NCBI GenBank assembly: GCA_028713935.1
Contig: JAQTNI010000001.1
Coordinates: 1,464 to 65,463, forward strand
DNA: 64,000 bases
Direction: 5' to 3'
From: Candidatus Iainarchaeum sp.
Lineage (GTDB): Archaea; Iainarchaeota; Iainarchaeia; Iainarchaeales; GCA-2688035
Shown one piece after another: positions 2,339-50,958 of this stretch (positions are counted from its first letter, which is position 1; every line of letters begins with the position of its first letter). The notes below the pieces were generated by a model. That model was not told where the DNA came from, did not search any database, and saw only the letters and a list, made by a program, of their open reading frames with translations. The position numbers and the translations under genes were made by a program.

Positions 2339-2758
2339 TTATTTTGCTCTTTCTGCTTTGCCTCTTTGTTTTGCAATTCTGTTTAATCTCTTTGTGGTAT
2401 TTCTGTCATATCTGCGTTCGACGTCCCTGTTCATAATAGGAGTATTCCCAGAGCCAATATTGGAAAGAGTTCTTCGGGTAGTCATAACTCTATCGCCTGG
2501 ACCTAAGAATAAAGAGGTTGCTTTTTTGTCCCCTGCTATGTAAACCTTTTCTGGATCATAGGTTCTTCTTTCGGCGTTGGCCGGCCGAACCATTTGCCTT
2601 GACCATTGTCTACGGCCAGTGTTCACTCCCCGAAAAGTTGCTGGTATTGTCTTGCCTGTAACTTTCAATCGCATCCAATTTATTCTTTGCCCTGTTGTCA
2701 GGGTTTTTCCAACCCGCCTTCTCTGCTTTTCTCTCTGGACTGGGCGTGTTATACTCAT
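2339..2758 (-). CDS. Arg/Lys-rich hypothetical protein, possibly nucleic-acid-binding, encoded antisense between L11 and L1
   Basis: 139 codons, ATG preceded by GGTGATTTT (SD-like), AGA/AAA codon usage matching neighbouring genes. About 20% R+K and no Cys. Local GC is clearly higher than its surroundings. No family recognised by eye. Confidence 0.45.
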   Translation of the reverse strand: MSITRPVQREKQRRRVGKTLTTGQRINWMRLKVTGKTIPATFRGVNTGRRQWSRQMVRPANAERRTYDPEKVYIAGDKKATSLFLGPGDRVMTTRRTLSNIGSGNTPIMNRDVERRYDRNTTKRLNRIAKQRGKAERAK

Positions 2759-3016
2759 AAAATCACCGGATAGATAATTATTGCCTAAGTTTTTAAGCTT
2801 TTCCGATTACTTTTTGTGTATATTAATTGGTTTTGTAAGTCTCTTTTTGAGACCGCAACTACCGCTTTTGGGATTGTTCAATTTGCACCTTGCAAATTGT
2901 TTCTTTTCCAACCTTTTTAAGGGCAGAATTGCTGGGCAATTGCGTTTTTCCTTGAAAAACGCTTCTTTTCCCGAGGCTTTTCTTTCCAAGAAAAGGCTCT
3001 GCGGGAGGTTTTTTGA

Positions 3017-3676
3017 TTGAACAAGAATGATTTTTCAGTTGCACTGCAGAAAATGCGCGATTCAAGCAAGCAGAGAAAGTTTACACAGTCAATTGAGTTA
3101 ATGATTAATCTCAAAGGCCTGGATTTTAAAAAAGCAGAGAACCAGCTTGACCTGAAAGTCGTAATGCCTTTTGCCACTGGAAGAACCAGGGGAAAAGTCA
3201 TTGTTTTTGCAAAAAGCAAGAGTTTTGCGGATGAAATAAAAGGCAAGGCTGACAGAGTAATAATGGAATCCGATATTCAGGGCTTGACAAAAAAGGATGT
3301 TTCCCAGATTATTGAGGCTTTTGATGTTTTGCTGGCTGAAGGCCCAGTAATGCTTACTATTGGAAAATTTTTGGGGCAACAGCTTGCGCCAAAAAACAAG
3401 ATGCCCCGCCCTATTCAGCCAAATGTTTCCCAGATTGAAAGCGCTTTGTCTGAAATGTCTTCTGTTACAAAGGTGACAAACAAAAAGGGAAAGCCAATGC
3501 CTGTTATGCAGGTTGTGATTGGCAATGAAAAAATGCAGAACGAGCAGTTGTCTGCAAATGCCTTTGCTATTTTTGACGCTGTCCTGAATGCTGTTCCCGG
3601 AAAAACCCAGAGCATTAAATCTGTTTTTTTGAAGGAAACAATGGGCCCTTCAATAAAAGTTGGTGAGAAAGAATGA
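3017..3676 (+). CDS. rpl1: 50S ribosomal protein L1 (uL1), TTG start
   Basis: L1 family motifs (KFTQSIEL, GKVIVFA). GGGAGG Shine-Dalgarno 9 nt upstream of TTG. Overlaps L10 by ATGA. Confidence 0.9.
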   Translation: MNKNDFSVALQKMRDSSKQRKFTQSIELMINLKGLDFKKAENQLDLKVVMPFATGRTRGKVIVFAKSKSFADEIKGKADRVIMESDIQGLTKKDVSQIIEAFDVLLAEGPVMLTIGKFLGQQLAPKNKMPRPIQPNVSQIESALSEMSSVTKVTNKKGKPMPVMQVVIGNEKMQNEQLSANAFAIFDAVLNAVPGKTQSIKSVFLKETMGPSIKVGEKE

Positions 3677-4464
3677 AGCGCCATATTTTGAAATGGAAAC
3701 AGGCCCAGTTTTCTGAATTAAAGAAAATTGCTTCGCAGTACAAGGTAATTGCAATTGCGGATTTGACAAATTTTCCAGCAGATTTGTTTCAAGGGGTAAG
3801 AAAAAAATTGCAGGGAAAGGCAATTGTGCGTGTTTCCAAGACAAAGGTAATCAAAAAGGCTTTGGAAGAGGCAAATTTGAAGTCAACTGAATTGATTCCT
3901 GTTGTAAAGGGAAGCGTTGCAATTATTTTTACTGACATGGATTCTTTCGAGCTTTATGGCTTGCTTAAAAGAAACAAGGGAAGTGTTTCCGCAAAAGTCG
4001 GTTCCATTGCGCCCGCGGATATTGTTGTTCCTGCAATTGACACTGGTTTGCCTCCTGGCCCGGCGCTTTCTGATTTGAAGGCAGCAGGCCTTGAAGTGAG
4101 GGTGCAGGGCTCTACAATTGCAATTGTAAAGGACAAGGTTGTTGCAAAAAAAGGCGAGGCAATAACAAAGCCTGTTGCTGGAGTGCTTGCAAAGCTTGAC
4201 ATCAAGCCAATAAAAGTCGGCCTGAATATTGTTGCGTGTTATGAGAATGGCCAGTTGTTCCTGCCAAAGGTTTTGGACATTGATTCTGAACAGGTTTTTG
4301 CGCAGATTATGAAGGCTGTGCAGAGCGCAGTGAATTTGTCAGTTGAAATTGTTTATCCTACAAAGGAAACAATTGAATTGATTATTGCAAAGGCTGTAAG
4401 GCAGGCAAATGCAATTGATGCCTTGGCAAAGGCAAAACAGCCTGCGGAAGAAAAAAAGGAATAA
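3673..4464 (+). CDS. rpl10: 50S ribosomal protein L10 / acidic protein P0 (uL10)
   Basis: P0-type N-terminal domain and the archaeal L1-L10-L12 order. Confidence 0.85.
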
Positions 4465-4498
4465 TTTTATTTTTTATCAAAAAAAAAGAGGTGAAAAA

Positions 4499-4801
4499 AT
4501 GGAGTATGTGTATTCGGCCTTATTGCTGCATTCGGCAAAAAAAGAAATTTCTGAAGATGGGCTTTCCCATGTCCTGAAAGCAGCCGGCATAACAGCGGAT
4601 TCCACAAAAATAAAGGGCCTTTTGTCAGCCCTGAAAGAAGTGAACATTGACGAGGCAATCCAGAAAGCTGCAATGCCAGTGGCAGTTGCTGCAACAGCAG
4701 TTGAAGCCAAAACAGAAGAAAAAGGCGCAAAGGAAAAGGCACAGGAAGAAGCCAAATCCGAAGAAGCGGCAGCAGAAGGCTTGAGCTCATTGTTCGGGTA
4801 A
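4499..4801 (+). CDS. rpl12: 50S ribosomal protein L12 / P1 stalk protein
   Basis: [12 protein letters not shown]-terminus, Ala/Glu-rich hinge and C-terminal ...GLSSLFG. GAGGTGA RBS upstream of the ATG at 4499; the ORF-track start at 4409 is too early. Confidence 0.85.
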
Positions 4802-5048
4802 AGCCTTCTCTTTTTTTTATTTTTTAAAAATGCCTTGTTTTTCCCACATTGCAAAAGCATTTGCTTTTGCGATGCGTCACAAAGCCCTGCTTTGCAACGA
4901 GGCTTTTGAAAGCGAGCATTGCGAAGCATTTTTCCCAAGGCTTTTTGCCTTGCAAAAAGGCTTTTGCGAGCGCTTCAAAAGGCTTTTGCCTAATTTTAAA
5001 TATTTAAACCAGCCTTAATTTTCACGCGTTACCAGGTTAAATATTGGC

Positions 5049-5320
5049 TTTTATATTCCAGAGGCAATAATTATTTTGGCATTGGTTTTTTTCAGGCTCA
5101 CCGAAAAAAACATTGTACTCAGGCAACTGGAGGTGGTTGGTAGCGTTTCAGCGGCAACCATTTTTTGCGATTGTTTGATTGACTAATGCCAGCTGCAGGG
5201 GAAATTGCTTCCTTGTTTTGGAACGTCCTTCCCAGGCGAAACTGGTTTAATCTCTGTATGAGAAATAGTCTCCAAAAAAAAGCAATTCCCTGCAGTACTT
5301 TATTTTTGAATTTTTTTCAG
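5049..5320 (+). ncRNA. Candidate structured non-coding RNA (unknown class) with TATA-like promoter and oligo-T terminator
   Basis: TTTTATATT at 5049-5057. GC-rich region with two stem-enclosed domains: GGCATT..AATGCC at 5076-5188, and a 16-bp long-range inverted repeat (5193-5210 pairs with 5280-5295). A T-run follows. There is no ORF here. Confidence 0.3.
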
Positions 5321-5911
5321 GATTGCCATGTTGAGTTCAAAAACTGAACTATAGCGAGCTGCTCTTGCTGTCAGCTGATTTGCTGTCAGCCAAATTGGGT
5401 CATTAGGTTGTGCTTGCCTTCTGATTCCTTGCCTTCGCAGGTCCCCCGCTTCTTCAAATGCCCTTCGGTAGTTTTGCCGAGCCTCTTGGGCAAGCATTAC
5501 GGCTTGTTTTGCTTTGGATTCAAGAAAAGATTTTTCTTTTATGGCAATGTCCAGGGTTTCCTCGCCCGGAAGCGCTGGAATCTTCATTTTTTTCAACTCC
5601 CGAGGCGAATTTGTGCTTCTGCCAAAATAATCAACTGAGGTTTTTTTTGCCAGAACTGGTTTTTTTCTGTTAATTGGTTCCTTTAATAATGGTGACTGTC
5701 GGAATCGAGAAATTTGTTCTTCTGGCAAGCCGCATTTTAAGGCAACCTGGGCATCTGTTAATCCGGGTTGCTGAAGCAGCTTAAATGCCCAGGCAATTTT
5801 TACTTCCTTTGGCTGTGTTGTGATGTCTGGATTTTTTGGCAAGACTTTTCTTTTTATTTTTCGCATAATTGCCATTTTAACCGCCTTGTTTTTTACTTTC
5901 AGCCTTTCCAT
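5300..5911 (-). CDS. Hypothetical protein with a possible HTH
   Basis: 203-aa ORF with neighbour-like codon usage. No family recognised. Confidence 0.4.
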   Translation of the reverse strand: MERLKVKNKAVKMAIMRKIKRKVLPKNPDITTQPKEVKIAWAFKLLQQPGLTDAQVALKCGLPEEQISRFRQSPLLKEPINRKKPVLAKKTSVDYFGRSTNSPRELKKMKIPALPGEETLDIAIKEKSFLESKAKQAVMLAQEARQNYRRAFEEAGDLRRQGIRRQAQPNDPIWLTANQLTARAARYSSVFELNMAILKKIQK

Positions 5912-24142: not shown

Positions 24143-24213
24143 TGGACTCGCCGGGAGTTGAACCCGGGTTTCGGCCTTGCGAAGGCCGCTTCTTACCGTT
24201 GGAATACGAGCCC
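24143..24213 (-). tRNA. tRNA-Ala (anticodon CGC), intron-less, no encoded CCA
   Basis: Full cloverleaf read by eye: acceptor GGGCTCG/CGAGTCC with the G3:U70 Ala identity pair, anticodon stem CGGCC/GGCCG, loop TTCGCAA, T-arm CCGGG-TTCAACT-CCCGG. Confidence 0.85.
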
Positions 24214-24744: not shown

Positions 24745-24867
24745 TGCAAAACACTTGAGCTATTGTTTCAATGTTTCTCTGCTTGACATCGTGCCAGGGC
24801 TTTTGCCGAAGGCTAGACTTGCGAAGCAAGTCTTTCTTTCCCTGGGCTTTCTTTTTAAGAAAGGCCA

Positions 24868-25045
24868 GTGGGGTTACAGGGATTTGAACCCTGATCAACT
24901 GGTCGCTCATTATTTTACCCTGCCTTTTTGTTGTTTACCAAAGAAAAATGGTTCTTTTCTTTGGGCAACTTACACTTTCTTTTCTTGCCAAGAAAAGAAA
25001 GGGCAGGTCTGGAGCCAGTCGCACTGCCTGGTTATGCTATAACCC
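24868..25045 (-). tRNA. tRNA-Trp (anticodon CCA) with a ~105-nt intron in the anticodon loop
   Basis: Acceptor GGGGTTA/TAACCCC, D-stem GCAT/GTGC, anticodon stem ACTGG/CCAGT, loop CTCCAGA, T-arm CAGGG-TTCAAAT-CCCTG, discriminator A. Intron is roughly 24907-25011. Confidence 0.75.
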
Positions 25046-25264
25046 CGTTGGGATAATTGAAGAATTTAAAGTTTTTAAAATCAGAGGTTTTGCATTGCAA
25101 AACCTTTCTTTCCCAGGGCTTTCTTTTTTAAAGAAAGGCCTGCCAAAGTAGCTCACTTGTTGAGTGCATAAAACAACTTTGTTTTGTTGTGTTTTTAAAG
25201 ATATGGAATTTTTTATTTTTCAAATCCGTCAATTTAATATATTCTAATTGCGCTACTATTACTG

Positions 25265-32475: not shown

Positions 32476-33510
32476 TTATTCCATGCTTTGCAAAAGCCCC
32501 ACTCTTCCCAGTTCCAAAAAATATTCGTTTTCAGGGTTATTGATTCCTTTTTTGCATTTTGTGTAGGTCGCAAGAATAACATAGATTGCGTGCCCGAGTT
32601 TTATGTAAGTTGGCAATGCTTCAAGTTCTTTCTGTGTTAGCGGAATAATTTTTTGGTATTCTTCCAAAACGATTTCAATGTTTTTTTCAGTTTTGCTTTT
32701 GCTTTCCTGCTCAAAAAGCACAGTGCAAGCCATTACCGCAAGCTCCTGTATTCTTGGATAATAATTTGCACATGCAAAATCAATAAGCCACAATTTTCCG
32801 TTTTTATCCTTCATTATGTTTGTTTTTGTCAAATCGCCATGAACAAAACAATGGGGCAATTTGTTTATTTCAAGTGCTTTTAAATCTTTCACCAATGGAA
32901 GAATTTTTTTCAGGTCTTCAGAATCCAGAAATTTTTTTGCTATTCGGAATTCCTTCAAAAAACTTGTTATTGCCCAATGGTCATAAACAAACTTTGGCTT
33001 TATTTTCATGCTGTTTATTATTGCGGCCTGCTTTGCCAAAAACCTTATTTCCAAATCGGCCAGTTTTTCTTTTGATTCAAACAAAGTTTTGCCTTCAATA
33101 AAATCCATTGCAACAAGCCGCAATTTTTTTCCCCTGACATTTAAAATCTGCAAATGCCTGTTTTTTGCCTCCAATAATTTTGGAGTGACCACATTGCTTT
33201 CCAAGGCCTTTTCCATGATTTTGACATATCTCTTGCATTCTTGGAGCGTTCTAAAATCAGCAAAGACTTTGACAAAAAAATTCCCTTTTTTTGTTTGCAG
33301 GGCAAAATTAAAATCTTCATAGCCAATTGCAACAAGCCTGTTTGAAACAAAAGCGCCAAGCCCAAAGCATTTGCAAACAGCTTCAGAAATATCTTCCAAT
33401 CTGCCTTTGAAGCCAATCCTTTTTTTGAATAAATCCCCCTCAGCCAAGCCAATCACTTTTTTTATTAGCAATCTGTTTACCAAAGATTCAAGTTCTTTTT
33501 CTTTGGGCAA
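32476..33510 (-). CDS. Aminoglycoside/choline-kinase-like phosphotransferase (APH family); start uncertain
   Basis: HGDLTKTNIMKDKNGKLWLIDF catalytic loop. The annotated TTG start lies inside a tRNA-associated repeat module. Confidence 0.6.
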   Translation of the reverse strand: MPKEKELESLVNRLLIKKVIGLAEGDLFKKRIGFKGRLEDISEAVCKCFGLGAFVSNRLVAIGYEDFNFALQTKKGNFFVKVFADFRTLQECKRYVKIMEKALESNVVTPKLLEAKNRHLQILNVRGKKLRLVAMDFIEGKTLFESKEKLADLEIRFLAKQAAIINSMKIKPKFVYDHWAITSFLKEFRIAKKFLDSEDLKKILPLVKDLKALEINKLPHCFVHGDLTKTNIMKDKNGKLWLIDFACANYYPRIQELAVMACTVLFEQESKSKTEKNIEIVLEEYQKIIPLTQKELEALPTYIKLGHAIYVILATYTKCKKGINNPENEYFLELGRVGLLQSME

Positions 33511-33550
33511 CTTACACTTTCTTTTTCTTTCAAAGAAAAAGGAAGGGCAG

Positions 33551-33711
33551 TGCGTCCGCCGGGATTCGAACCCGGGTTACGAGCTCTTTCCTGCTTCAAT
33601 TTTGTTTATTATTTGTTGAAGTTCTTTCTTTTGGGCAACTTACACTTTTCTTTCTTTCAAGAAAGAAAAGGGCAGTGGGAAGCTCGAATCCTACCGCTAG
33701 ATTACAGACGC
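33551..33711 (-). tRNA. tRNA-Gly (anticodon CCC) with a ~90-nt intron
   Basis: Acceptor GCGTCTG/CGGACGC (one G-U pair), D-loop AGCGGTAGG, anticodon stem CGAGC/GCTCG, loop TTCCCAC, T-arm CCGGG-TTCGAAT-CCCGG. Intron is roughly 33585-33674. Confidence 0.75.
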
Positions 33712-45837: not shown

Positions 45838-46108
45838 TTTCACCAAGATTTTAAAAAACCATATCAATAATACTTTTTGAGTTGGGAGCAAGGTGGGCAT
45901 GAACAAGGTTCATGCCTGCCAAATTTTTACTTCTCCAAAAGAAGCAATTAAAAACCACTTGATTCCTAATTTTAACACTGCAGAGGTGGCAAGGCCTTTC
46001 TTTGCCTTGCAAAGAAAGCCCTGGGAAAGAAATACTTTTTGCCAATGCAAAAAGTGCTTCGCAAAGGAAACCCCTGGGAAAAAATTGCCGCCAATAAAAG
46101 AAAATCAT

Positions 46109-46302
46109 GCAGAGGTGGCAGAACTTGGTAAATGCGCCGGCCTTGAGAAGCCTTTCTTTCTAAAGAAAGAAAGCCTTGGGAAAGAAACAGTTTGGCTCTG
46201 CCAAACTGTAGTTCGCTTCGCTTACATTAGAAAAAAAGATTATTATTTTTCAGGCGAGCCGGTGTCCGAAAGGGCGCGTGGGTTCAAATCCCATCCTCTG
46301 CG
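46109..46302 (+). tRNA. tRNA-Ser (anticodon TGA) with a ~108-nt intron and long variable arm
   Basis: Acceptor GCAGAGG/CCTCTGC, anticodon stem CCGGC/GCCGG, loop CTTGAGA, variable arm TGTCCGAAAGGGCGC, T-arm GTGGG-TTCAAAT-CCCAT. Intron is roughly 46149-46256. Confidence 0.7.
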
Positions 46303-46314
46303 CAATCTTTTTTT

Positions 46315-50548: not shown

Positions 50549-50622
50549 TCGCCTTTTAATTTTTCCAAAGCCCCAAGCACCTTTTTATTTAAATATTTGC
50601 ACAACTTATTATTTCAAGCAAT

Positions 50623-50868
50623 GCGGGGGTGGCAGAGCGGTCTAATGCGCACGCCTGGAAAGGCCTTTTCTTGCAAGCAAGAAAAGCCCTGGGAAAAGAA
50701 CAATTTGCTTTGCAAATTGGTTGATTCCCCGGTTCTCCCCAAAGGATAATTTCAGTTAGAAATTTTTTTCTTTGGGGTGGACTGCAGACCTTTCTTTTTA
50801 TTAAAAAGAAAGGGATATAGAGAGCGTGTTCTCGAAAGGGAGCGCGAGTTCAAATCTCGTCCCCCGCG
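50623..50868 (+). tRNA. tRNA-Ser (anticodon GGA) with a ~160-nt intron; its 3' end is the integration target (attL)
   Basis: GCGGGGGTGGCAGAGCGGTCTAATGCG 5' half, anticodon stem CACGC/GCGTG, loop CTGGAAA, long variable arm, T-arm GCGAG-TTCAAAT-CTCGT, acceptor 3' CCCCCGC. Confidence 0.75.
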
Positions 50869-50958
50869 TTAAACGAAAAGTTCAAATCCAATTGAACGGA
50901 AAATTCAAAAAAGAAGCTTTTTTATTTTGCTTGGAGCATAATTGTTATTGGTGGTATA

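Follow-up and report, generated by a model that had tools for sequence, protein, structure and literature searches.

A strand-polar repeat module of DPANN archaea, common in tRNA introns and trailers, that may fold back into a triple helix

Several described systems come close to the element analyzed here. Bulge-helix-bulge (BHB) tRNA introns of the Thermoproteales are excised by the splicing endonuclease and 'intron transposition' has been described for them; among archaeal tRNA introns generally, sequence relatives turn up in different tRNAs, also at non-canonical sites such as the D-loop and T-loop, and their presence varies between relatives. Homopurine-homopyrimidine mirror repeats can form an intramolecular triplex, H-DNA, while in ENEs a U-rich internal loop clamps a 3′ A-rich tail upstream of a tRNA-like element. 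In Methanococcus, the autoregulatory mRNA site of ribosomal protein L1 lies in the rpl1 leader, near the ribosome-binding site.

The present study analyzes hairpin repeats in a window of 64,000 nucleotides from a Candidatus Iainarchaeum MAG contig (Iainarchaeota). A preliminary description had drawn attention to GC-clamped hairpins in the rpl1 leader, after rpl12 and at tRNA loci, and all hairpins quoted there exist, with positions shifted by no more than about 7 nt: in the rpl1 leader GGCTTTTCTTTCCAAGAAAAGGC lies inside 2973-2999 (originally ~2968-2992) and the neighboring GCGTTTTTCcttGAAAAACGC at 2942-2962, after rpl12 GCAAAAGCatttGCTTTTGC lies inside 4847-4874 and GGCTTTTTGCcttGCAAAAAGGC inside 4937-4963, and CCTTTCTTTTTattAAAAAGAAAGG occupies 50789-50813 (originally 50795-50820). 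They were rightly taken for a dispersed family and not for chance, as the composite pattern GCCTTT-N3-20-AAAGCC-NN-GGGAAA-(N)-GAA has six matches in the window and none in 100 shuffles. Hairpins with at least 10 pairs number 21, compared with 10.0 +/- 3.0 (maximum 19) in 30 dinucleotide shuffles, and 15 of the 21 fall in six non-coding clusters. The hairpins are real, but a GC-clamped hairpin is an incomplete account of the unit, which is a polar three-arm module. Several features had been missed. The seeming G.G or C.C flaw is a conserved one that assigns each copy a strand, and a third arm of 9–12 nt invariably comes after the hairpin, on one side. The copy in the rpl1 leader runs antisense to that gene, the hairpin at 50789-50813 lies inside a 162-nt tRNA-Ser(GGA) intron, and module-built introns occur in four of the window's five tRNA genes. 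The earlier interpretation is partly supported overall. That the module is a polar, modular repeat family widespread in DPANN archaea is largely shown; for the fuller reading, in which this strand-polar repeat spreads as a self-contained fold-back triplex wherever it is harmless or removed, we would put the probability at about 0.45.

On its sense strand the AB module begins with two variable bases, followed by GCC, a pyrimidine arm (Y), a loop, a purine arm (R), GCC again and two bases pairing with the first two, with one conserved C.C mismatch at the base of the stem. The third arm, R′ (GGGAAAGAA...), repeats R in mirror orientation instead of complementing it, and the two co-vary; a second hairpin (B) of variable stem sequence usually comes after R′. 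In a sister module, type C, CTGCCC-Y-loop-R leads into the linker TGTAAGTTGCCC of 12 nt, with R′ after it. Outside GCC...GCC, the two flanking bases form a Watson-Crick match in 109 of 113 copies, in seven pair combinations (shuffled pairings: mean 38, maximum 53), and 50 copies of hairpin B yield 38 distinct perfect stems. Compensatory changes separate the window from its relatives at two places: the outermost pair of rpl1-leader hairpin A is A-T in the window and G-C in relative L079, and the tRNA-Trp trailer differs in hairpin B from that of relative L001. Judged from this covariation, the stem of the module is real.

The third arm, in turn, mirrors R. The match spans the full stem, or falls short of it by no more than one base, in 62 of the 72 distinct (R, R′) pairs (permuted mean 28, maximum 42 in 5000 trials), and mirror length follows stem length over the range 6 to 12. 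An independent set of 29 distinct type C modules, fetched with the linker as sole bait, includes 24 perfect mirrors, and the mean mirror identity of type C R′ is 0.96 versus 0.73 when permuted (maximum 0.85). An alternative explanation could be that R′ is a direct repeat, giving an alternative Watson-Crick hairpin with Y, but this is excluded by the asymmetric A-run patterns of the type C set, such as (1,4,5)->(5,4,2), (3,1,5)->(5,1,4) and (4,7)->(7,4), which also rule out the mirror as a trivial by-product of (GAAA)n periodicity. Across all hairpins that have a purine arm and a match of 8 nt or more downstream, the mirror scored above the direct repeat 89 times and below it 5 times, with 37 ties; type C arms have 0.96 identity to the mirror and 0.83 to the direct repeat.

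From its sequence symmetry we infer that the three-arm layout is that expected of a fold-back triple helix. The third arm is unpaired in every MFE fold computed, R arms are 98% purine, and their G's are isolated (4 GG dinucleotides observed, 30 expected); the combination of a homopurine-homopyrimidine tract with mirror symmetry is that which characterizes H-DNA and intramolecular triplexes. A single strand Y-loop-R-R′ would fold so that the purine strand of the hairpin is contacted by the mirror arm, producing an intramolecular triple helix of the purine motif on the sense strand and of the pyrimidine motif (U.A-U / C+.G-C) on the complementary strand. Each module would be a compact, nuclease-resistant fold, self-contained and unpaired with host RNA, and could therefore spread and persist. 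Spread would follow some recombination or insertion route, and persistence would be favored where tRNA-processing enzymes excise the module, in introns and trailers, or where it does no harm, in the loops of UTR stems and in non-transcribed spacers. Several observations weigh against a triplex. R′ of the AB module follows the stem with no spacer, and doubling back over three base pairs and the mismatch with only two G's would be sterically tight. Purine-motif triplexes are poorly tolerated by RNA strands, and it is the purine version that the tRNA-sense RNA bears. Several features look tuned to the antisense strand, perhaps in DNA form: its mismatch is G.G and not C.C, its triloops include GNA ones (GCGAAGC, for example), and its pyrimidine motif is rich in T.A-T and has isolated C's. 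The near-lack of G.U pairs is atypical for RNA-selected helices; of 11 mismatches in 113 modules just one is G.U, and 11 are too few for G.U and A.C counts to pick out the structured strand.

The suggested link to tRNA genes was borne out, with modules found both in tRNA introns and after tRNA 3′ ends. Within the window, four tRNA genes out of five have introns of 90–162 nt built from modules, and removing the insert, at 37/38, restores canonical tRNA-Trp, Gly, Ser(UGA) and Ser(GGA) (ARAGORN with introns, Rfam tRNA model); standard scans overlooked two to four of the five. At the tRNA-Trp(CCA) locus, all on the minus strand, an AB module (24815-24868) starts 1 nt past the discriminator base, a type C module (24952-25006; CTGCCC-Y-loop-R, linker TGTAAGTTGCCC, R′ AAAGAAAAGAA) forms the 5′ end of the 105-nt intron, and a further AB module (25086-25142) lies upstream of the promoter region. 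The tRNA-Gly(CCC) gene, likewise on the minus strand, has one type C module immediately after its 3′ end (33493-33550) and another at the 5′ end of its 90-nt intron (33622-33675). By inspection its exon-intron junctions form a canonical bulge-helix-bulge (stem CGAGC/GCUCG, 4-bp helix UUCC/GGAA, 3-nt bulges CA|C and AG|A, outer helix UGC/GCA). Viewed informally, the BHB of the other window tRNAs looks relaxed. On the plus strand, a 12-nt copy of the tRNA-Ser(UGA) 5′ end (45980-45991), the sole duplication seen, is joined to an AB module in 45980-46055 (A 45991-46023, R′ 46023-46033, B 46034-46055), and an AB module with hairpin B and a conserved GTTCGCTTCGCTTACA motif (46148-46226) lies at the 5′ end of the tRNA-Ser(UGA) intron. 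The 162-nt tRNA-Ser(GGA) intron, also on the plus strand, begins with an AB module (50661-50719) and carries near its 3′ end an inverted type C-like module (50763-50813) composed of Y′ TTTTTTTCTTTGGGG, a spacer and the hairpin CCTTTCTTTTT att AAAAAGAAAGG. We also considered that these 'introns' might be spacers between separately transcribed tRNA halves, in which the module would act as a terminator and an A/T-rich box would provide an internal promoter. A BHB formed by leader and trailer around tRNA-Trp or tRNA-Gly was rejected for want of complementary leader sequence, and no C or D boxes of guide RNAs were found by eye in the window's introns.

Beyond the window, a scan of a genome collection recovered at least 109 matching loci, several copies per genome; the matches listed are mostly from Iainarchaeota, with others in Aenigmatarchaeota, Micrarchaeota, Woese-/Pacearchaeota and Nanoarchaeota. 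Of introns of at least 40 nt, 37 of 45 begin with such a hairpin and 31 of these 37 have the mirror arm, while a module hairpin lies within 10 nt of the 3′ end in 24 of 82 tRNAs, mostly at 0–3 nt and occasionally at up to 6, although these context frequencies are biased because the loci were retrieved with the pattern itself. All of the approximately 30 modules that ARAGORN placed inside tRNA genes are on the tRNA sense strand. The main habitat, as is largely shown, is the extreme 5′ end of long tRNA introns and the first bases past tRNA 3′ ends. Other copies lie in intergenic spacers, some as tandem arrays (e.g. in JBAZQI01).

The strict sense orientation, with the module 0–3 nt from a 5′ splice site or discriminator base, invites the possibility that hairpin and third arm are a host RNA-processing element, one that serves a DPANN tRNA-processing enzyme for recognition or anchoring. 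A candidate is the splicing endonuclease; DPANN endonucleases share a specific L3 loop insertion that is associated with increased tRNA gene disruption (PMC5829648). Such an element would position cleavage immediately before the hairpin, both at 5′ splice sites of introns and at tRNA 3′ ends, and/or cap the excised RNA, leaving a stable small RNA. It would account for bases that are non-structural and yet kept across DPANN phyla (GCC..GCC, GGG, the linker TGTAAGTTGCCC and GTTCGCTTCGCTCACA), and the CTGCCC at the 5′ flank of type C introns pairs with GGGCAG near the 3′ splice site. This explanation is nonetheless unlikely in our view, given many intergenic copies in both orientations with no tRNA or other Rfam RNA nearby, copies between terminators or antisense in an mRNA leader, a distance to the tRNA 3′ end that varies from 0 to 6 nt, relatives in which the same tRNA has no intron, and a tRNA-Ala(CGC) in the window itself that lacks a module.

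A second possibility is that the structure acts in DNA. Mirror and inverted repeat together would form H-DNA, or else a cruciform-triplex, where the DNA is supercoiled or single-stranded. They would serve as an orientation-dependent transcription barrier (a terminator or insulator by tRNA genes with high transcription) or as a hotspot of replication or recombination, and the pyrimidine arm would also provide a T-rich tract for termination by archaeal RNA polymerase. The Y arm of tRNA trailers does occupy the exact place of the oligo-T of module-less tRNAs, there interrupted by C, but Y arms in the window hold T3–T5 runs only, and T8 tracts are already present at rpl12 and at its convergent gene. 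Some copies lie in apparently untranscribed spacers and intergenic copies are more often co-oriented with flanking tandem genes than opposite (13 and 5, respectively), yet the commonest site is the intron start, where a roadblock or terminator would abort the tRNA. Mirror symmetry and purine/pyrimidine segregation are the classical requirements of H-DNA, and near-perfect Watson-Crick stems intolerant of G.U, together with GNA triloops and the G.G mismatch on the antisense strand, would suit DNA; the intra-strand Y arm and its covariation, however, are not required for H-DNA alone. On balance we regard a DNA-level role as improbable.

Of the three roles proposed in the preliminary description (transcript 3′-end or processing signal, protein-binding site, miniature mobile repeat colonizing tRNA anticodon loops), the last fits best, with support from presence or absence between relatives, nested insertions, tandem arrays and the at least 109 DPANN loci, mobility being deduced from this distribution and turnover only. 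The tRNA-Trp intron, for example, is absent in L001 while its flanks are about 90% identical. The module does not resemble a MITE: one end is sharp and the other variable, and neither a transposase nor terminal inverted repeats were found for it, nor a target duplication when filled and empty sites were compared. An ORF beside the modules (2339-2758, minus strand), tried as a transposase, has no Pfam or NCBIfam match, and a CRISPR was rejected in the lack of any regular repeat-spacer array. One form of mobility that would need no target duplication is single-strand DNA transposition, of which the module could be a REP/BIME-like relic, its mismatched hairpin being a putative site of an HUH/Y1 enzyme (RAYT or IS200/IS605-type). 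As such an enzyme acts on one strand, both the polarity and the abrupt end at the foot of hairpin A would be explained; that end is seen when the filled site is compared with the empty site of relative L231. The hairpin, an imperfect palindrome with a strand-specific mismatch, and the intergenic arrays of copies also fit. No conserved tetranucleotide adjoins the hairpin, however, and the long co-varying mirror arm is without counterpart in REP or IS200 ends. Viral contigs had no match to the AB pattern, and their eight matches to the type C 16-mer, at least three of them on the same contigs as hairpin-less metagenome matches, look like chance. We consider this origin very unlikely.

The copies at 2960-5000 are, as is largely shown, ordinary family members in permissive places. 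In the rpl1 leader the sense strand of the repeat is the minus strand. Hairpin A of the first AB module (2973-2999; GAGCCTTTTCTT gga AAGAAAAGCCTC, with the C.C mismatch) appears on the rpl1 mRNA strand as a G.G-mismatch hairpin ending 1 nt before the Shine-Dalgarno sequence GCGGGAGG. Its third arm (2963-2972) is GGGAAAAGAA, the mirror of the purine arm AAGAAAAG, and reads UUCUUUUCCC on the mRNA strand; the arm is unpaired in the MFE folds. Hairpin B (2942-2962) is GCGTTTTTC aag GAAAAACGC. A degenerate second AB module follows in tandem on the same strand (2879-2926; B 2879-2899, third arm 2900-2909, remnant A 2910-2926) and is better preserved at the same position in L079. Outside the repeat, comparison of five relatives reveals a conserved plus-strand leader core (2818-2872) with a TATA-like box (2818-2826), a hairpin GTCTC-T5-GAGAC (2839-2853) and ACCGC (2861-2865), which can pair with GCGG at 3001-3004; both modules sit within the loop closed by this pairing.

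It had been suggested that hairpins such as these might serve L1 autoregulation, and their position directly 5′ of the Shine-Dalgarno, in a leader that as a whole folds better than shuffles (z = -3.15), counts in favor of this. The orthologous leaders point the other way. The window and L079 have two modules, L230 and L232 have one each with nested hairpins, and L231 has the conserved core and stem with no module; the module is not specific to rpl1 mRNA, occurring as well in tRNA introns and trailers and at the at least 109 loci, and in the leader it is antisense. Comparison of these sequences makes the rpl1-leader copies look like passengers, and the GTCTC hairpin with the ACCGC...GCGGGAGG core would be the better operator candidate. 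An L1 operator would be expected to mimic the L1-binding site of 23S rRNA, an RNA that the window does not encode.

Archaeal transcription terminates at oligo-T, with 3′-end formation requiring five or more T in a row on the non-template strand directly past the gene, and by analogy the plus-strand tract T8-a-T6 directly after the rpl12 stop (4812-4826) is likely the terminator. It precedes the hairpins, which lie in the spacer between this and the oligo-T tract of the convergent gene, both putative terminators, with no U run after them. Read on the minus strand, they comprise a divergent module (4837-4874; CATCGCAAAAGC aaat GCTTTTGCAATG then TGGGAAAAAC) and a divergent AB-type module (4927-4963; AAGCCTTTTTGC aag GCAAAAAGCCTT then GGGAAAAATG), whose base AAGCC...GCCTT with the C.C mismatch is as in a T-run/GC-top subfamily arrayed in JBAZQI01 (L026). 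Neither strand resembles a bacterial-type intrinsic terminator, sense-strand hairpins being followed by GGGAAAGAA and those of the other strand by unrelated flank; the T-rich segment of the module is its 5′ arm and not 3′ of the hairpin. Relatives L231 and L232 lack these hairpins. The sequence does not support a terminator role for the post-rpl12 copies, and regulation specific to this operon, with an L1 operator in the leader and an rpl12 terminator downstream, is hardly credible.

Returning to the fold-back triplex, it need not be a passenger. Near-identity across DPANN phyla and a position flush with tRNA cleavage sites could instead reflect host function, either as a cap that marks cleavage sites for a DPANN-specific activity and stabilizes the released RNA or as a DNA triplex 'diode' by tRNA genes. 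This is possible, though we doubt it; if true, it would represent the first natural co-varying intramolecular triplex family in archaea and a new tRNA-processing determinant.

The repeat family is apparently undescribed. A literature search that included the literal motif sequences found no description of the module, and Rfam, at gathering and permissive thresholds, returned only tRNA matches for the window and 18 loci (best non-tRNA score: Fusobacteriales-1, 30.8 bits where 52.1 was required). Should the mirror arm indeed form a triple helix, the modules would be a large natural family with covariation among all three strands, giving comparative evidence for a structure otherwise rare outside a few eukaryotic and viral RNAs, and much of the sequence of the unusually long DPANN tRNA introns and trailers would be explained. 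Modules also offer a sequence handle for locating disrupted DPANN tRNA genes and concrete substrates for studies of DPANN splicing endonuclease, RNase Z and RNA polymerase, and annotators should avoid taking their hairpins for operators or terminators of particular genes.

The module shares features with each of the known systems and coincides with none. Like bacterial REP/BIME elements, it is a short imperfect palindrome with a strand-defining imperfection, present in many copies per genome, clustered in tandem in intergenic spacers and UTRs, and turning over rapidly between relatives; unlike them, it is archaeal, strongly tied to tRNA introns and trailers, equipped with a co-varying mirror arm and a second variable hairpin, and arrayed directly instead of alternating. 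REP/BIME elements are mobilized by RAYT transposases, and the module is not known to have a RAYT-like gene. With archaeal BHB introns it has in common removal by splicing endonuclease, relatedness among introns of different tRNAs and at non-canonical positions (D-loop, T-loop), and presence or absence between relatives, but the shared part is a structured module of the intron 5′ end, conserved across phyla and abundant outside tRNA genes. The Methanococcus L1 site is also in the rpl1 leader near the ribosome-binding site, but the module is not rpl1-specific, is missing in one ortholog and there opposes the tRNA-sense orientation of the family. MALAT1, MEN-beta and ENEs likewise place a triple helix, putative in the present case, beside a site cut by a tRNA-processing enzyme, and the antisense order of the module, Hoogsteen strand, Watson-Crick pyrimidine strand and purine strand, is that of an ENE plus A-tract; the module, however, is a hairpin with an adjacent mirror arm, lacks both an internal loop and a terminal A tract, is found downstream from the tRNA part, and has two purine strands in tRNA-sense RNA. 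H-DNA mirror repeats share its strict purine/pyrimidine segregation, mirror symmetry and short spacer, and its isolated G's suit C+.G-C triplets flanked by T.A-T. The difference is that the duplex partner comes from an inverted repeat on the same strand, so that one strand alone could form both hairpin and third strand, and that the module is a dispersed, evolving family and not a simple tract.

The hairpins named in the preliminary description of this window all exist, within a few bases of where they had been placed, and those with at least 10 pairs number 21 in the whole window against 10.0 ± 3.0 (maximum 19) in dinucleotide shuffles. Fifteen of the 21 lie inside six non-coding clusters: the rpl1 leader, the spacer after rpl12, and the surroundings or introns of tRNA-Trp, tRNA-Gly, tRNA-Ser(UGA) and tRNA-Ser(GGA). 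The gene content around them is archaeal, with rpl11 (1844–2323), rpl1 (3017–3676), rpl10/P0 (3673–4464) and rpl12/P1 (4499–4801) as well as ftsZ, secE and spt5. The encoded L1 matches exactly a protein of a 'Candidatus ainarchaeum sp.' metagenome-assembled genome, a member of the Iainarchaeota in DPANN. The hairpins had been called near-perfect and the stems are indeed present, but they have one conserved mismatch in common, which is C.C or G.G depending on the strand read and gives every copy an orientation. They belong to one family of three-armed modules with strand polarity. On the sense strand, hairpin A of an AB module reads x2x1-GCC-Y-loop-R-GCC-y1y2, where Y is a pyrimidine arm and R a purine arm; immediately 3′ of it comes a third arm, R′ (GGGAAAGAA or GGGAAAAGAA), and then usually a second hairpin, B, with the motif GTTCGCTTCGCTCACA in many copies. 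A sister module, type C, has a linker before the third arm and reads CTGCCC-Y-loop-R-TGTAAGTTGCCC-R′. The pattern of hairpin A plus R′ has six matches in the window and none in 100 shuffles: on the minus strand at 2963–2997 in the rpl1 leader and at 24834–24865 and 25106–25139 on either side of tRNA-Trp, and on the plus strand at 45994–46031 upstream of tRNA-Ser(UGA), at 46150–46186 where the intron of that gene starts, and at 50663–50700 at the start of the tRNA-Ser(GGA) intron. Type C modules occupy three sites in the window (the starts of the tRNA-Trp and tRNA-Gly introns and a position directly 3′ of tRNA-Gly), and an inverted C-like module that includes the hairpin at 50789–50813 lies near the 3′ end of the tRNA-Ser(GGA) intron.

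The stems covary. In a set of 113 AB copies, drawn from the window and from genome-collection loci, x2x1 can form Watson-Crick pairs with y1y2 in 109, and seven different dinucleotide pairs are represented; shuffled pairing gives 38 on average and at most 53. The stem of hairpin B is perfect in 50 copies and takes 38 different sequences among these. Compensatory changes were found between orthologues in the outermost pair of the rpl1-leader hairpin A (G-C in the window, A-T in the related locus L079) and in hairpin B of the tRNA-Trp trailer (AGACTTGC/GCAAGTCT in the window, AGGCTTGC/GCAAGCCT in L001, from a close relative). G.U pairs are nearly absent from the stems, accounting for 1 of 11 mismatches in the 113 modules. 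The sense-strand loop of hairpin B is TNC in 27 of 43 cases (TTC 14, TGC 10, TCC 2, TAC 1), as at 24815–24833 and 46034–46055 in the window and in loci L016–L109; on the antisense strand these become GNA triloops with a closing C-G pair, such as GCGAAGC, which as a DNA mini-hairpin is exceptionally stable.

The third arm is R read backwards, neither complementary to nearby sequence nor a direct repeat. Although the symmetry is partly built into the AB search pattern, the mirror covers the whole stem or all but one base in 62 of 72 distinct (R, R′) combinations, whereas permuted pairing averaged 28 and never exceeded 42 over 5000 trials, and the matched length tracks stem length from 6 to 12 nt. 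Because of this built-in symmetry, an independent set was fetched from metagenomes with the type C linker as the only bait; about 80 of its 120 matches were chance matches with no hairpin, and the 33 copies retained represent 29 distinct modules, all with Y-loop-R upstream. Of the 29, 24 have an R′ that mirrors R perfectly, and mean mirror identity is 0.96, compared with 0.73 under permutation (maximum 0.85) and 0.83 in the best direct-repeat register. A direct repeat is ruled out, the question being settled by asymmetric A-run patterns, which pass from R to R′ as (1,4,5) to (5,4,2), (3,1,5) to (5,1,4), (2,3,5) to (5,3,3) and (4,7) to (7,4). When every purine-arm hairpin in the loci that has a match of 8 nt or more downstream is considered, the mirror outruns the direct repeat in 89 cases, falls short of it in 5 and ties with it in 37, and a mirror of at least 7 nt occurs downstream of 44% of such purine-arm hairpins and upstream of only 4.5%. 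To our knowledge no polymerase-based process produces mirror repeats, and the three-way match of Y, R and R′ is therefore probably kept by selection on structure.

An intramolecular triple helix is the only standard structure we know of for which a single strand must supply Y, R and the mirror image of R, and from these sequence patterns we infer that the mirror arm forms one. It would be of the purine motif on the sense strand and of the pyrimidine motif on the complementary strand, in the order Y′-Y-loop-R. Consistent with this, the third arm is unpaired between two hairpins in every secondary-structure prediction, and the purine arms (74% A, 24% G) have isolated G's, with 4 GG dinucleotides against 30 expected; an A-rich composition with isolated G's is one that T.A-T and C+.G-C triplexes favour. 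In AB modules R′ abuts the stem without a spacer, which is sterically tight, and purine-motif triplexes are poorly tolerated by RNA strands. Several features, namely the G.G mismatch, the hairpin B loops and the pyrimidine motif, favour the antisense strand, possibly as DNA.

The genome-collection scan gave at least 109 loci. Among the matches listed, nearly all with a hairpin came from DPANN metagenome-assembled genomes (MAGs), chiefly Iainarchaeota, with several loci each in JBAZQI01, JAGVNX01 DeMMO3_25, JAQTPU01, DATDTD01 and JAFCFG01, and others in Aenigmatarchaeota, Micrarchaeota, Woese-/Pacearchaeota and Nanoarchaeota. Bacterial matches had no hairpin and were set aside as chance matches, and the AB pattern had no match in viral contigs.

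The modules are associated with tRNA genes. Four of the five tRNAs of the window (24143–24213, 24868–25046, 33550–33711, 46109–46302 and 50622–50869) have introns of 90–162 nt at position 37/38. Default detection recovered one of the five with ARAGORN without introns (bacterial mode) and three with Rfam, those missed being hidden by introns of 105–162 nt, and the tRNA sets of such MAGs are probably under-called. Across the loci, which were fetched with the module pattern and therefore give biased frequencies, a module-type hairpin opens 37 of the 45 introns that measure 40 nt or more (31 of the 37 with a mirror arm), and one lies no more than 10 nt past the 3′ end in 24 of the 82 tRNAs. All of the roughly 30 modules that ARAGORN places inside tRNA genes lie on the tRNA sense strand. 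One possibility is that the modules serve the host in processing or stability, with the L3-loop endonuclease of DPANN (PMC5829648) perhaps recognising them. The flanks of other copies resemble D-loop or T-loop sequence, which suggests non-canonical intron positions. Remaining copies are intergenic and in both orientations (13 co-oriented and 5 opposite in tandem-gene contexts), and no Rfam RNA was found near the modules in 18 intergenic loci. Spacers of about 250–450 nt in JBAZQI01 are occupied by tandem arrays of hairpin-GGGAAAGAAAGAA units, accompanied by a further repeated core, cgccagccccaagcaaagcatggctttgcgggcctcgtaccctgcagggcactcgg (L014 5600–5700, L022, L026 2410–2470, L049), with which they may make up a larger composite element.

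Relatives differ in the presence or absence of modules. The tRNA-Trp(CCA) gene at 24868–25046 (−) has a 105-nt type C intron that its counterpart in L001 (3278–3351, JAQTPU010000018) lacks, although identity in the flanks is about 90%; the intron was recently and precisely gained or lost. The tRNA-Ser(GGA) intron has its first module in common with locus L094 and differs downstream. An exact 12-nt copy of the tRNA-Ser(UGA) 5′ end (GCAGAGGTGGCA; original at 46109–46120) lies at 45980–45991, 117 nt upstream of the gene, and has an AB module after it. Either an additional intron at the D-loop position, whose exon is ambiguous, or a duplication upon insertion could account for it. The same copy caused ARAGORN to mis-call a tRNA-Glu spanning 45980–46303. 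When filled rpl1 leaders are set against the empty one of L231, the element has a single sharp end, where hairpin A has its foot, and the target is not duplicated. These points argue for a proliferating element. The family may instead be a REP-like relic of single-strand transposition. Of the roles first proposed for the hairpins, that of a mobile repeat fits, whereas those of L1 operator and rpl12 terminator do not.

Leaders of rpl1 were compared in five relatives with L1 identity from about 90% down to 59%, all of which, including one without a module, have a common core: a TATA-like box (2818–2826), a GTCTC-T5/6-GAGAC hairpin (2839–2853), ACCGC (2861–2865) and GCGGGAGG (3001–3008), which includes the Shine-Dalgarno sequence and whose GCGG can pair with ACCGC. 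The stretch between ACCGC and GCGG varies: in L231 it is only five bases long and holds no module; in L230 and L232 it holds a single antisense module, in whose stem more hairpins are nested; in the window and L079 it holds two antisense modules in tandem; and in L233 it holds a different Y′-Y-R unit. The modules have therefore been inserted into a loop that a conserved stem closes. They are dispensable to that stem, whatever its role, and the conserved core, intact in L231, is a better L1 operator candidate than the repeats. Since the modules are antisense to rpl1, its predicted mRNA would have the pyrimidine-motif version, UUCUUUUCCC-GA-GGCUUUUCUU-ucc-AAGAAAAGGC-UC. Between the rpl11 stop and the rpl1 promoter, an ORF at 2339–2758 (−) encodes 139 very basic amino acids (MSITRPVQREKQRRRVGK...) with no match in Pfam or NCBIfam; missing at this position in L079, L230, L232 and L233, it looks like a lineage-specific insertion adjoining the modules.

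After the rpl12 stop codon comes a T8+T6 tract (4812–4826), and the convergent ORF at 5300–5911 (−) likewise has a T8, some 20 nt beyond its stop codon. Two divergent modules with minus-strand sense (4837–4874 and 4927–4963) lie between these tracts. At the DNA level the family may act as an H-DNA barrier or terminator. This placement speaks against an rpl12 terminator, as does the absence of the modules from L231 and L232; L233 has instead a sense module directly past the stop codon. The rpl copies appear to be passengers. In the spacer after rpl12, where the window holds modules, L232 has an ORF for an 89-aa GIY-YIG domain (3846–4115, +). A non-coding stretch 3′ of rpl12 is conserved across Iainarchaeota (window about 5040–5300; L231 2230–2465; L232 3560–3850), reading GGTGGTTTTT.GGCTCACC ... 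GGAGGTGGTT..TAGCG..CAGCGG ... TTGGAACG ... CTCCAAAAAAAAGC; it had no Rfam match at E ≤ 5 and is a candidate unannotated structured RNA or 3′ UTR element.

A triple helix would give the module a compact, self-contained fold that could be tolerated in introns, trailers and loops, and the family would spread as a selfish element. No Rfam family matches the modules and a literature search found no description of them; the general kind, dispersed structured repeats and tRNA-intron elements, is known, and the three-strand architecture appears unreported. Among known elements, those closest to the modules are bacterial REP/BIME repeats, mobile archaeal BHB introns, H-DNA mirror repeats and the ENE/MALAT1 triple helices, which lie beside tRNA-like processing sites. 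A defining feature of most of these is missing from the modules, which nevertheless have some features in common with each.
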